A stretch of DNA of 64,000 nt from a virus (Duplodnaviria > Heunggongvirae > Uroviricota > Caudoviricetes), in IMG/VR virus record IMGVR_UViG_3300025778_000009, one strand, 5' to 3'. Made by a program: the position numbers and the translations under genes. The notes beneath the pieces are model-generated. The model saw only the letters and a program-made list of their open reading frames with translations. It did no database searches and was not told where the DNA came from. Below are positions 4,273 through 31,504 of the stretch, in pieces. Numbering within the stretch: the first letter of the stretch is position 1; every line of letters begins with the position of its first letter.

Positions 4273-5082
4273 ATGACCGCAAATACAGAGAACGTCACAT
4301 ACAGAATGTTTGAGAACCCAGCTGCGCAAATGCTTCCAGAGGGTTCAGAAAATAAAAAAATTATTACAGCATATAAGATGTATGAAAATTCAAATGTAGA
4401 AATTGCCCGTGGTAAATTAACTCGCCCATGGATGGATGATACATCTGATAAATTTGCATATCGTTGCTTACCGCTTAATATTGCTAACATGCACGGGTGG
4501 GCAATCTATCTTAAAAAGAGTGTAGTAGTAGAGTGGAACGGTAAACCAGGTATTGATGGTATTAAAATTATAGACCAAGAAGAGAATAAAAATTTAGTTA
4601 GCTCTCATTTTGGTAGTGGCATTGTAACTTTTTACGTAGACCATTTATTTAAAACACCAGAAAATTATAGCCTTTATATTACCGGGGCTCCTAATCATAT
4701 TATACCAGGTGCGCATGCATTAACTGGAGTATATGAGTCAGATTGGGCTCCTTATTCTTTTACTATGAATTGGAAACTAACTGATCCACATAGAAAAATT
4801 ATTTTTAATGTAGACGATCCTATTTGTTTTATATTTCCAGTTCAAAGAGAACTAATAGAAGAGTTTGTATTTGAAGTGCGCGATTTAAGTTCTAATCCAG
4901 AACTAGATACAGCTTATAAAGAATTTAACGATTCAAGAAATAGCTTTTTAGAATCAATAGCGCAGGGGACAAATAAAGATACTTGGCAACGAAATTATTT
5001 TCAAGGTAAAATGCCTAGTGGCTCAAAATGCCCTGTACATAACCATAAAACAAAGTTAAGTCTTAATTTTGAGGAAAAATAA
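4273..5082 (+). CDS. DUF6065-like protein
   Basis: RPWMD...AYRCLPLNIAN.HGW...SHFGSGIVTF...ESDWAPYSFTMNWK. Confidence 0.7.
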   Translation: MTANTENVTYRMFENPAAQMLPEGSENKKIITAYKMYENSNVEIARGKLTRPWMDDTSDKFAYRCLPLNIANMHGWAIYLKKSVVVEWNGKPGIDGIKIIDQEENKNLVSSHFGSGIVTFYVDHLFKTPENYSLYITGAPNHIIPGAHALTGVYESDWAPYSFTMNWKLTDPHRKIIFNVDDPICFIFPVQRELIEEFVFEVRDLSSNPELDTAYKEFNDSRNSFLESIAQGTNKDTWQRNYFQGKMPSGSKCPVHNHKTKLSLNFEEK

Positions 5083-22576: not shown

Positions 22577-23002
22577 ATGTCTAATATTGCACTCGTTGTT
22601 AAGATGCTCGAATCTAATCCTACTGCAGATAAGGCTACTTTGGTTGAGATGGTTATTGCTCAGCTTAAAGTAACCAAGTCTAATGCTCAGGTCTACGTTT
22701 ATAACGCTCAGAAGAAGCTTGGTAAGCCTACTAAGACTGCAAAGCCTGCTAAGGCCTCTAAGTCTGTAAAAGATACTCGTGCAGAGATTGTTCGTAAGTC
22801 TGATGAAGAAGTTGCTCGTATCAAGGATGAACGTCTTGCTCAGATGAAGTCAATTGGTGAGCGTCGTGTAAAAGAGCAAGCAGAAATCGATGCTAAGAAA
22901 GAAGTAATGCTGTCTCAGATTGATACTTTTATGGATGACAATAAGGCTTATCTTGACGGTCTTACTGCTCCTACTCGTAAGTTTTTCGGCCTTGCCGAGT
23001 AA
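22577..23002 (+). CDS. Basic hypothetical early protein
   Basis: SD AGGAG; upstream GTTGCATT..TATAAT promoter-like element. Confidence 0.65.
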   Translation: MSNIALVVKMLESNPTADKATLVEMVIAQLKVTKSNAQVYVYNAQKKLGKPTKTAKPAKASKSVKDTRAEIVRKSDEEVARIKDERLAQMKSIGERRVKEQAEIDAKKEVMLSQIDTFMDDNKAYLDGLTAPTRKFFGLAE

Positions 23003-23060
23003 AGTTAGCTATATATGAGTAGAGAGAGCAATCTCTCTACTCAACTCTAAAGGACTATTA

Positions 23061-23165
23061 ATGCACTCTTTATCCTGTATGAAACAAACATATCGCCTAA
23101 CATTTAGCGGACAGATTGCTCCGAATGCTGGCGTATGGTCAGAAGGTAAGGAGCGCTCAGTGTAA
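23061..23165 (+). CDS. Putative leader peptide (34 aa, MHSLSCMKQTYRLTFSGQIAPNAGVWSEGKERSV)
   Basis: SD AAGGA; stop codon overlaps the 5' arm of the antiterminator. Confidence 0.65.
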   Translation: MHSLSCMKQTYRLTFSGQIAPNAGVWSEGKERSV

Positions 23166-23224
23166 AATTAGATAGATATAATCTAAGAACACTGAGCGGC
23201 CTAGGAAACTAGAGCCGCTTTTTT
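23154..23224 (+). promoter_or_regulatory. Attenuator: mutually exclusive antiterminator (23154-23198) and terminator (23194-23224)
   Basis: CGCTCAGTGT/ACACTGAGCG 10 bp versus GAGCGGC-CTAG-gaaa-CTAG-a-GCCGCTT-TTTT; shared GAGCG. Confidence 0.75.
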
Positions 23225-23279
23225 AATAGCCCTTTTTTAGTTGATTAAATTTTGTAAATTTACTATATTAATAATCGAT

Positions 23280-23354
23280 GCTGTTCCGAGTGGATAAGAA
23301 CAGCCCCTGACTGGTACTTGAGCCAAATGGCTGAATAGGTGGTTTCCAGCAGGG
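23280..23354 (+). ncRNA. Structured RNA segment
   Basis: GCTGTTC/GAACAGC hairpin; CCCTG..CTGG/CCAG..CAGGG stem. Confidence 0.45.
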
Positions 23355-23371
23355 TAGAAGAACAACGAAAG

Positions 23372-23528
23372 TTGTCTCTTCATGGATACTACACTGGGTA
23401 GGCTGATAGACGTATCAGCTAGGGAAACTCATGGCGCATTGAGAGTCCTGAGATAACCAGAGTCTGGCGCTAAGGACGGCTGCAACCGAATCCGAAGTTG
23501 ACTTTATGTAGTATCTTTGTAGAGACAA
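23372..23528 (+). ncRNA. Stem-enclosed ncRNA A
   Basis: 22-bp closing stem 23372-23393/23507-23528; internal hairpins. Confidence 0.7.
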
Positions 23529-23529
23529 T

Positions 23530-23668
23530 TTGTTTCTTCACAGATACATCAGAGCCCAAAGCTAGTGCACAAATATTAAAGCAGAGGTAGGCTTCCCAGA
23601 ATCGGTAATCAGCTGTAATAACGAGTGGTATTGGAAGTTAGATAGCTGGTGTATCTTTGAAGAGACAA
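23530..23668 (+). ncRNA. Stem-enclosed ncRNA B
   Basis: 23-bp closing stem 23530-23552/23646-23668, similar in sequence to A. Confidence 0.7.
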
Positions 23669-23675
23669 TTGAATT

Positions 23676-23835
23676 TTGGACGGTATTGGCTAGGCGCTGA
23701 TATCTGTATTCTCTGGCAGGAGTACGAACGAGGGATGCCAGTCCCTCTAGTAGCCAAATAACTAATCGTAGCAGTTTGGCACTGCTGGTGAAGCACCTAC
23801 GGAGATGGTAGGAGAGCAGATGAGCAATCATCCAA
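23676..23835 (+). ncRNA. Multi-hairpin ncRNA with kissing loops
   Basis: Loops CTGGCA (23713-18) and TGCCAG (23736-41) are complementary; several further hairpins. Confidence 0.6.
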
Positions 23836-23858
23836 CAAAACAAATGCCAAACATTTTT

Positions 23859-23957
23859 GTGGCGTATGGTGTAATGGTAGCACAGGAAGTCCGAGACGCC
23901 TTAGGTGGAGTAGGCATTCAAAAAGCCAAGAGCAGTTCGATCCTGCTGCGCTGCACA
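23859..23957 (+). ncRNA. tRNA-like RNA with expanded anticodon region, no CCA
   Basis: D arm GTGT-AATGGTA-GCAC, T arm AGCAG-TTCGATC-CTGCT and acceptor pairing; about 35 nt replace the anticodon arm. Confidence 0.5.
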
Positions 23958-23964
23958 AAGTATT

Positions 23965-24048
23965 GGAGGTATGCGAGCAAGGTGCTCAAAGAGTCTTGAA
24001 AACTCTGCCACCGCAAGGTTGATGGTTCGATTCCTTGTACCTCCGCCA
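23965..24048 (+). tRNA. tRNA-Ser(TGA), atypical D arm and weak T stem
   Basis: GGAGGTA/TACCTCC, G73, long variable arm, CCA. Confidence 0.75.
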
Positions 24049-24052
24049 ATAT

Positions 24053-24201
24053 TGCAGGTGTGGAAACCTGTATATCACTAGCATTGATGTACCGAAGTAA
24101 ATGCTAGGTATAGTGGGCAGCCACTGGAGTCTGCATTGTCGGTCGTACCCGCAGTCCTATAATCTGTCAACGCGAAGATTGACACTGGAAGGAGTAACCA
24201 G
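24053..24201 (+). ncRNA. Multi-hairpin structured RNA
   Basis: TGCAGGT/ACCTGTA, CTAGCATT/AATGCTAG, TGTCAA/TTGACA, CTGG/CCAG; GC-rich, no ORF. Confidence 0.45.
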
Positions 24202-24212
24202 AACGAGTTTTT

Positions 24213-24306
24213 GGGTGAGTTGATGCTACGGCGTGTGCATCCCCGGACTGTAAATCCGGTCCCTATGTGGTAAACAATGTTGGTTCGACTCCAACCTCAC
24301 CCACCA
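24213..24306 (+). tRNA. tRNA-Tyr(GTA), extended D stem
   Basis: Cloverleaf, long variable region, CCA. Confidence 0.85.
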
Positions 24307-24400
24307 AAGATTTCAGTTGCATTATTATGCGATGTATCGTATTATAATAATGTACTGAAACGGACATTGTGTCCACCTTTTATAATATGGAGAAGTGAAA

Positions 24401-24658
24401 ATGACTAATACAACTCGCGTACTTACAGCTCTTATGACTGGTGAAGAATTGACTGCAAAGCAGATCTCAGCACGTTACGGCATTGCAAATGCTCGTGCAA
24501 CTATCTCTGCTCTTCGTTCAGAAGGTTATGCAATCTATCTTAACGCTCGTAAGGACACTAAAGGTCGTGTAACTAACAAGTATCGTCTTGGAACACCTAC
24601 TCGCAAGATCATTGCAGCTGGTTACAAGGCACTTGGCGCTGAAGCATACGGCGCCTAA
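24401..24658 (+). CDS. Small HTH-like protein
   Basis: LTAKQISARYGIANARATISALRSEGY..YRLGTP. Confidence 0.65.
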   Translation: MTNTTRVLTALMTGEELTAKQISARYGIANARATISALRSEGYAIYLNARKDTKGRVTNKYRLGTPTRKIIAAGYKALGAEAYGA

Positions 24659-24681
24659 TAGCTAGGTCCCATCTCGGATGT

Positions 24682-24711
24682 AAAGAGGGGCTTAGCGGCC
24701 CCTCTTTTTTT
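24682..24711 (+). terminator. Rho-independent terminator
   Basis: AAAGAGGGGC-ttagcg-GCCCCTCTTT-TTTT. Confidence 0.8.
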
Positions 24712-24856: not shown

Positions 24857-24886
24857 TATAAATATCAGTAAAGGAGATACTGATAT
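24857..24886 (+). promoter_or_regulatory. Late promoter plus RBS/ATG hairpin
   Basis: TATAAATA 24857-64; ATATCAGTA-aaggaga-TACTGATAT(G). Confidence 0.75.
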
Positions 24887-25448
24887 GAAAAAGTCTAAAA
24901 GTGAAGCTTGGTATGCTGCAATGGCTGCTAAAAAAGATAAAGGTACCAATCGTAATCAATATACCAAAGCTAAAGAGTTAGGATTACCCAAACCAGAAAT
25001 TTCAGAAGAGTCGCATAAAAAAAGAAGTTCTGCTAGTAAAAGACCTCATACTGAAGAAACAAAAAAGAAAATTAGTGATCATCGTATAAAATTTTTACGA
25101 GAAAATCCTGATAAGGTACCTTATAAATTAAATCATTCTTCTAAAGGTAGATCATATGCAGAAGAATATTGGAAAATAGTATTAGATACTAACAACTTAG
25201 TATATGAAGAACAATATCAAATTGGTCCTTATCAATTAGATTTTGCCTTCCCTAATTTAAAATTAGATTTAGAAATAGACGGTGATCAACATCATTTAGA
25301 TAAAAGAGTTGTTGAAAGTGATAAAAGAAGAAACCTTTATCTTGAAGAGCTTGGATGGACTGTTATAAGAGTTAAATGGTCTGACTATAAAAAACTAGAA
25401 GATAAAAAAAGTTTCGTTAATAATATAATAAGTTTACTGGACCCATAG
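24885..25448 (+). CDS. DUF559/Vsr-like endonuclease (putative homing endonuclease)
   Basis: YQLDFAF..LEIDGDQHH..SDKRRNLYLEELGWTVIR; HTEETKKKIS NUMOD3-like. Confidence 0.8.
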   Translation: MKKSKSEAWYAAMAAKKDKGTNRNQYTKAKELGLPKPEISEESHKKRSSASKRPHTEETKKKISDHRIKFLRENPDKVPYKLNHSSKGRSYAEEYWKIVLDTNNLVYEEQYQIGPYQLDFAFPNLKLDLEIDGDQHHLDKRVVESDKRRNLYLEELGWTVIRVKWSDYKKLEDKKSFVNNIISLLDP

Positions 25449-29971: not shown

Positions 29972-30046
29972 GACCCTATGGCAGATTGGTTATGCAGGCG
30001 CCTCTAAAACGCTGTGAAGCAGGTTCAATTCCTGTTAGGGTCACCA
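29972..30046 (+). tRNA. Amber suppressor tRNA (anticodon CTA)
   Basis: GACCCTA/TAGGGTC-A-CCA; loop CT-CTA-AA; C31-A39 mismatch. Confidence 0.8.
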
Positions 30047-31291: not shown

Positions 31292-31404
31292 TAGGTTGTT
31301 TACAGCATATTTTTGCGCTTGTAGTGCCGGGTCGTGGGTTCGAATCCCACCGGGAGCTCCTTGCTTCTGTAGCTCAGTGGGTAGAGCACGTAAAAGACAA
31401 CCTG
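31292..31404 (+). ncRNA. Y-RNA-like cassette 3 (YrlA-like permuted tRNA domain)
   Basis: TAGGTTGT/ACAACCTG + TTA + CAGCA; GTGGG-TTCGAAT-CCCAC, CGGGAGC-tcctt-GCTTCTG, TA-GCTC-AGTGGGTA-GAGC. Confidence 0.85.
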
Positions 31405-31504
31405 TTGATTTTATTGAGAAAAAACTAACCTATTGAAATATAACGATTTTTTTATAGAAAAAACTCAATGATTTCAAGGTCATATTTCTGTTGACTTTAT
31501 ATCC

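Follow-up and report, generated by a model that had tools for sequence, protein, structure and literature searches.

Why phages carry tRNA genes, and when those genes are expressed, is still debated. The locus described here touches the second part of that question: within a 64,000-nucleotide stretch of DNA from an uncultured phage (hereafter the window; ~35% G+C, 31 tRNA genes), what does a small structured unit at positions 23008 to 23224 do ahead of the tRNA genes? The gene content of the window includes a DNA polymerase, a UvsX-like recombinase and a DnaB-like helicase. A search of INPHARED for relatives of the window returned tRNA-like matches only and no close deposited phage genome, and the conserved core of the leader gave 0 matches in 185,579 prokaryote genomes and thus no clue to a prophage or a host. 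We give an even chance to the reading that the unit is a ribosome-dependent transcription attenuator reporting general decoding speed; under such control, slow decoding by ribosomes would probably raise the share of transcription that passes the terminator. A switch of this kind, tied to translation and placed ahead of a tRNA array, would constitute a feedback loop between decoding capacity and tRNA supply.

The unit follows a 141-residue ORF that ends at 23002, is present as a single copy in the window and lies, with the features listed in the rest of this paragraph, on the + strand. It opens with a TATA-rich box (GCTATATAT, 23008 to 23016), its likely promoter, in place of which relatives carry TATAAATAG, preceded in several of them by TTGACA 17 nt upstream. 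A 12-bp stem-loop forms the start of the unit in the minimum-energy fold (23016 to 23043; relatives carry a hairpin of other sequence at this site) and is followed by a Shine-Dalgarno-like AAGGA (23050 to 23054) 6 nt 5′ of an ATG at 23061, and by a leader ORF of 34 codons with a TAA stop (23061 to 23165) that encodes a 34-residue peptide. Folded on itself, the ORF makes a rod (23063 to 23156) composed of the pairing P1 (23063–23076 with 23144–23156), an invariant helix (23089–23097 with 23130–23137) and an apical hairpin (23108–23111 with 23120–23123). An antiterminator hairpin, H1 (23154 to 23198; 10 bp plus an inner 6-bp stem), has the arms CGCTCAGTGT (23154–23163) and ACACTGAGCG (23189–23198), of which the 5′ arm spans the final three codons and reaches one base into the stop; pairing of AGG at 23149–23151 with CCU at 23200–23202 extends it. 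The intrinsic terminator (23196 to 23224, −16.4 kcal/mol) has a 9-bp GC-rich stem with one bulge (arms 23196–23204 and 23209–23218), a GAAA loop and a U6 tract (T6 in the DNA, 23219–23224). Behind it lie a sigma-70-like promoter (TTGATT-N17-TATATT, 23241 to 23269) and a downstream unit (23270 to 24707) made up of an ncRNA region, tRNA-Ser(TGA) (23965–24048), tRNA-Tyr(GTA) (24213–24306) and the next + strand terminator (24682–24707). The AAGGA, the 34-codon frame, the 10-bp hairpin over the stop codon and the GC-rich terminator with its U tract had all been described in an earlier, sequence-only reading of the window, and each was recovered where that reading had placed it. A similar Shine-Dalgarno sequence precedes 22 of 38 phage genes in the window, and among the window's terminators that of the leader unit is the sole one behind a Shine-Dalgarno-led short frame of high amino-acid diversity. 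No covariance model of Rfam 15 (leaders, riboswitches, T-box, 6S and tmRNA included) matched anywhere in positions 23000–23960 at E values up to 1.

Searches with the neighboring protein, the terminator sequence and the conserved core as queries identified 17 distinct close units on viral and metagenome contigs from freshwater samples, divided into group 1 (15 units, window included) and group 2 (2 units, with neighboring proteins only 39% identical). The ORF is exactly 34 codons long in all 17, and 16 of them retain the GGA core of the Shine-Dalgarno sequence amid surroundings that vary. A scan with a motif taken from the downstream ncRNA added ~26 further loci, and all 15 distinct sequences that were long enough (~14 new units) share the same order upstream of the ncRNA: a TATAAATA box, a Shine-Dalgarno sequence, an ORF of 24–35 codons, a hairpin over the stop and a terminator. 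This wider family comprises at least 10 sequence groups, with the unit heading a phage tRNA array in every case and a large tRNA array behind it on the same strand at all loci with enough sequence. The element is a folded RNA of ~200 bases that precedes tRNA genes in a small clade of uncultured freshwater phages. The sequence-only reading had proposed looking for high-diversity upstream frames paired with terminators before the tRNA clusters of related phages, and this arrangement recurs in every relative found. On one contig (L029) the unit follows a different upstream gene, yet the same promoter, ncRNA and tRNA-Ser/Tyr come after it, so the unit travels with the tRNA locus.

Leader-peptide attenuation is a textbook mechanism for amino-acid operons, and the layout at this locus resembles the enterobacterial leaders trpL, hisL, leuL, thrL, pheL and ilvL, in which a short leader frame has its stop placed so that the terminating ribosome blocks the antiterminator, and competition among helices 1:2, 2:3 and 3:4 is followed by an intrinsic terminator and U tract. 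The spacing of stop and U tract (~55 nt) is similar in enterobacterial amino-acid leaders. Found in the window are a Shine-Dalgarno sequence, start codon and short ORF, an intrinsic terminator ahead of the putatively controlled genes, an antiterminator that shares bases with it and a stop codon inside H1; a further feature of attenuators, controlled genes without a promoter of their own, is absent from the window and present in groups 8–10. In groups 1 and 2 the 5′ arm of H1 contains the stop, as it does, by reading of the sequences, in the wider groups. Bases common to H1 and the terminator are GCG, the first 3–4 terminator bases (AGC in group 2). When the window transcript was cut before the 3′ arm of the terminator, H1 extended by AGG::CCU occupied 6 of the 9 bases of the terminator 5′ arm before the 3′ arm exists, a stronger competition than the sequence-only reading had claimed; with the same cut, the extended helix of relative L002 occupied the entire 5′ arm. 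At two other loci (L037 and L077), the last codons and stop mimic the 3′ arm of the terminator. Among natural variants the overlap of antiterminator and terminator ranges from 3 bases to the full arm; the overlap between ORF end and terminator arm has been maintained through complete sequence turnover.

Folded to equilibrium, the complete transcript contains both H1 (7 bp) and the full terminator, which means that any switch must be kinetic. In a folding model with a masked ribosome footprint, the probability of the terminator was ~0.95 in every lineage tested when the mask covered the last codons, and 0.0–0.5 in most lineages when it covered earlier codons; in group 8, ribosome position had no effect in this model. 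With no ribosome and the transcript cut before the 3′ arm, the full H1 already forms even with P1 present, P1 sharing just 2 bases and the AGG with extended H1. The safest statement on the basis of these predictions is that termination would need a ribosome at the stop and that all else would favor read-through. The folding results suggest how ribosome position may act on termination. Transcription would start from the TATA-rich box and first yield the protective 5′ hairpin, after which the 34-codon frame would be translated. A ribosome at the stop would cover the 5′ arm of H1, leaving the terminator 5′ arm free, which would allow terminator formation and release of the transcript at the U tract. 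If the ribosome lagged in the frame or never arrived, H1 would form, extend through AGG::CCU and occupy much of the terminator 5′ arm, and RNA polymerase would more often continue into the ncRNA and tRNA genes. Separately, the Shine-Dalgarno purines at 23051–23053 pair with CCU at 23200–23202 in cut transcripts (in L002, 4459–4464 with ~4605–4610, CUCU), and such predicted pairing with the terminator 5′ arm could link ribosome binding and terminator state at the 5′ end as well.

To what such a switch would respond depends on the composition of the leader frame. The window's leader contains 19 amino-acid types (Asp is absent) and 29 codon types, among them both codons for each of Lys, Gln and Glu, three for Gly and four for Ser; a recount agreed with the sequence-only reading on all of these. 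That reading had also called for a simulation of this diversity, in which its claim held for amino acids and failed for codons. At least 29 codon types in 34 codons are rare against the codon usage of the genome (0.28%) but occur in 13% (0.13) of the open frames obtained by shuffling the ORF's bases, and its DNA read in the two other frames gives 26–31 codon types (and 14–18 amino-acid types). The codon count is therefore unremarkable, since the base composition of the ORF (45% G+C versus 35% for the genome) is enough to give it; the low codon adaptation of the ORF (0.52 versus 0.71, 2.5th percentile) points in the same direction. At least 19 amino-acid types were reached in 1.8% of draws from the window's codon usage, in 1.3% of real 34-residue windows of its proteins and in 3.7% of open shuffles of the ORF's bases.

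Taken alone, the amino-acid count of the window is mildly unusual, and the effect holds across the family. The 17 close units have 18–20 amino-acid types each (all 20 in six of them), and in the 10 sequence groups each ORF has 2–4 types above the expectation for its length. The combined excess was significant under every null applied, whether the amino-acid frequencies of the window's proteins (Fisher P = 1.5e-8), shuffles of each ORF's own bases (P = 1.1e-6), Met, Cys and Trp taken as given (P = 3e-4) or groups 1–5 merged to one (P = 9e-4). Cys occurs in all 10 groups (expected 2.5), Trp in 9 (expected 3.7) and His in 9 (expected 4.8), while Asp is found in only 5 (expected 8.7). In 16 of 16 ORFs the coding frame has at least as many amino-acid types as the other frames. 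Diversity that depends on the reading frame and survives complete sequence turnover argues for translation and for selection on composition, and on these grounds we infer that the frame is translated. Stop avoidance in group 1 was weakly significant (~1.8 stops expected, 0 seen). A chimera test within group 1 gave 19.1 types observed versus 18.2–18.5, a difference that is too small to be of use given the shared ancestry of the sequences.

With no run of any codon and with single codons for 19 amino acids, the signal would be overall decoding speed and not the supply of one amino acid. An attenuator specific to one amino acid, of the classical kind, is excluded by the lack of a codon run and by the presence of 29 codon types in 34 codons. 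Compared with the codon runs of classical attenuators, single codons offer far lower sensitivity (PMC1183508). The claim of the sequence-only reading that the leader samples almost the whole tRNA pool is thus upheld in part: amino-acid diversity is high family-wide, whereas codon diversity follows base composition and there are no tandem regulatory codons. Sampling of nearly all tRNAs is a plausible reading. As a tentative extension, the frame may be a selected “decoding test” that includes almost all amino acids, even the rarest, and in which loss of almost any charged tRNA, for example through a tRNA-cleaving defense, would slow the ribosome and open the phage tRNA array to transcription; as a biological trigger, a link between the leader and anticodon nucleases is pure inference. 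Were the “decoding test” true, the supply of phage tRNAs would be demand-driven. According to a current view, phage tRNAs replace host tRNAs destroyed by defense nucleases (PMC10264068). A match between leader amino acids and the tRNAs encoded behind them was not demonstrable in groups 4, 8, 9 and 10 (hypergeometric P = 0.05–0.3 with all tRNAs counted, computed by hand), the nearly complete leader sets leaving little power; a value of 0.007 arises only with a tRNA block picked post hoc, and we make no claim from it.

The RNA itself is strongly folded, with z-scores against shuffles of −7.9 for the window and −5.8 for group 2, and nearly every base of the unit lies in a helix. Variable codons 2–4 pair with codons 29–31, and compensatory changes were found in 7 of the 12 pairs of P1 and in 2 pairs of H1 (GC/AU and UA/CG); 89.8% of cells are paired, versus 32–42% in slid-partner controls. 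G-U pairs indicate that the folded molecule is the + strand RNA. Within group 1, variable sites are spread evenly over the three codon positions (14/15/14) and pN/pS is ~0.95, which indicates that the peptide sequence is not under purifying selection and fits a leader peptide. The same values bear on whether the locus is simply a small protein-coding gene that ends in its own terminator and functions through a 34-residue product, as could be thought from the frame having been predicted by gene callers in metagenomes, where it forms three cluster representatives of 28–34 residues. We consider this highly improbable given the near-neutral variation, the low codon adaptation and the fact that peptides of different groups cannot be aligned. 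A peptide profile search of 1.84 billion proteins returned the family's own three clusters and repetitive proteins that were taken for translated CRISPR repeats; this resemblance was rejected as a clue to the nature of the unit, of which the window has one copy only. Two further peptide classes were considered and dropped: a lasso or other modified-peptide precursor (there is no acidic ring position) and a type I toxin (there is no hydrophobic segment).

Conservation within the rod is uneven. Its apical half (23089–23137) is invariant, third codon positions included, and contains invariant blocks of 15 and 18 bases, while P1 covaries. When groups 1 and 2 are compared, it is the third positions that show the highest conservation (10 of 12 in the shared core, by manual count), and Gly17, Pro21, Gly24 and Trp26 are invariant in both groups. 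Arrest leaders such as TnaC and SecM carry a peptide motif that stalls the ribosome on an effector, and the invariant residues, together with the presence of Cys in all 10 groups and of Trp in 9, could be read as a motif of this type (G-Q-x-x-P-x-x-G-x-W in groups 1–5, with Cys and Trp throughout) by which the nascent peptide stalls the ribosome for one effector. The conserved residues fall on conserved stems, however: Gly, Pro and Trp are shared because the stem bases GGA/UCC and UGG are fixed. As third positions are the best kept between groups, no common peptide motif extends across groups 6–10 and no Pfam match was obtained, nascent-peptide arrest appears improbable.

The same stem bases agree with an attenuator that is set by something other than the ribosome: the invariant apical rod would bind a protein, a small molecule or another RNA, and the binding would stabilize or open P1 and thereby tip the balance of H1 and terminator, with the reading frame as a by-product. 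Invariant blocks of 15 and 18 bases closed by a covarying P1 are what a binding core closed by a helix would look like, and such a model also accounts for the conserved Gly, Pro and Trp. Still, it is distinctly unlikely: no Rfam family matched; a Shine-Dalgarno sequence, a start codon and an open frame recur in each of the 10 groups, even those that lack the invariant core; no frame but the coding one shows raised amino-acid diversity; and the stop codon always lies within the 5′ arm of the hairpin. For the ribosome-dependent attenuator, the invariance of the apical rod is unexplained by a plain leader peptide and hints at another sequence-specific partner. The terminator stem is likewise invariant in group 1, and its 3′ arm and the U tract are identical in group 2; terminator sequences are not usually fixed in this way, which suggests that an additional sequence-specific constraint acts here.

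The remaining alternative concerns the relation of the unit to the genes behind it. The sequence-only reading had cautioned that the promoter-like TTGATT-N17-TATATT at 23241–23269 could bypass the attenuator, and this caveat was borne out: the promoter is present and is conserved in group 1. In the window, the downstream genes consequently need no read-through, and a switch would only add transcription read through from upstream; its direct control would be limited by the next + strand terminator (24682–24707) to the ncRNA, tRNA-Ser and tRNA-Tyr. A promoter directly behind the terminator also accords with the unit being a stable small RNA in its own right, possibly trans-acting, whose frame could be translated or not and whose terminator would simply mark its 3′ end and insulate the downstream promoter, with no control of the tRNAs in cis. 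Such an RNA would have its own promoter, 5′ hairpin, rod and terminator, as the unit does, and its folding (nearly all bases helical; z-scores as above) and the sequence invariance of the apical rod and terminator in group 1, and of most of the terminator in group 2, are in keeping with it. Terminated attenuator RNAs that act in trans have a precedent in rnTrpL (PMC6614838). A 6S-like RNA was considered separately and dropped, as there is no central bubble and no Rfam match.

Wider sampling of the family makes a purely independent small RNA unlikely. The promoter behind the terminator is absent from, or has no room in, groups 2 and 8–10. In groups 8–10 the ncRNA starts 8–15 nt past the U tract, and a + strand scan of the gap between U tract and ncRNA found no promoter there; because this gap is too short for a promoter, transcription can reach the ncRNA and tRNAs only by getting past the terminator. 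By reading of the sequence, these groups carry TTGACA-N17-TATAAAT ahead of the leader (an element that the promoter scan leaves unscored, its last base being A), and their order is the classical one of promoter, leader, attenuator and genes. The maintained overlap between ORF end and terminator arm and the dependence of amino-acid diversity on the reading frame likewise speak against a stable RNA without a function in cis. Elsewhere in the window, TATAAATA boxes occur on the + strand at 2808, 5977, 24857, 28159, 35953, 39015 and 62644, mostly a few tens of nucleotides 5′ of a Shine-Dalgarno sequence and ATG, as T4 late promoters do, and their position before genes is suggestive; neither GCTATATAW nor TATAAATA was enriched in the window by plain count.

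The ribosome-dependent attenuator proposed here would be unusual in kind, having many single codons instead of a run of one codon. Leaders of amino-acid operons differ from it in having a run of cognate codons where single codons for 19 amino acids are found here, and in controlling enzymes, whereas an ncRNA and tRNAs lie behind this phage-encoded leader; the promoter behind the terminator in the window and the lack of a match to any Rfam leader family also set it apart. In the pyrBI leader of Escherichia coli, which encodes a peptide of ~44 codons with no regulatory codon run, termination is set by the closeness of the ribosome to RNA polymerase; the signal is UTP-dependent pausing of the polymerase, and the ribosome itself blocks the terminator. 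The unit resembles pyrBI in its leader peptide without a regulatory codon run and, if it works as proposed, in letting the trailing ribosome decide termination; it differs in that ~30 nt separate the stop from the terminator arm and the antiterminator is a hairpin of its own. A short frame that reports general translation stress is also known from antibiotic-sensing leader attenuators and from toiL, the upstream ORF of topAI-yjhQ, where stalling at several positions relieves premature termination (PMC12121999). Rho and the accessibility of the RNA mediate the toiL response, which belongs to a bacterial toxin-antitoxin operon, in contrast to the intrinsic terminator and phage tRNA locus found here. 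rnTrpL, the attenuator-derived small RNA mentioned above, offers a further likeness, as the terminated leader would be a structured and probably stable RNA with a possible second role in trans, a lead that could be followed for the invariant apical rod. A literature search found no paper on leader-peptide attenuation of tRNA genes or in phages.

Several neighboring elements were recorded alongside the leader. A conserved structured ncRNA lies between the leader terminator and the first tRNA (window 23270–23960, L012:8229–8330, L029:3010–3440 and ~26 loci in L031–L082). It starts with GAUGCU and a hairpin, followed by CUGACUGGUAC, another hairpin and GUGGUUUCCAGCAG, which pairs back and in whose pairing U-A is exchanged for C-G between groups; it has no Rfam match, and many freshwater phage contigs have it. 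Between leader terminator and ncRNA, eight contigs (L031, L034, L039, L042, L046, L062, L063 and L066) carry a conserved 52-residue ORF with a strong Shine-Dalgarno sequence. Inside the tRNA array of the window, an ORF resembling HNH/homing endonucleases (24885–25448; PHROG 559, E = 2e-9) overlaps with its 3′ end the start of tRNA-Lys (25439) by 10 bases. Positions 31302–31411 gave a sub-threshold match to YrlA, a Y-RNA-like family (33.6 bits, E = 3e-4; gathering score 69). The array also includes a tRNA with anticodon CTA (29972–30046; labeled Pyl by ARAGORN), which reads UAG and may be an amber suppressor.
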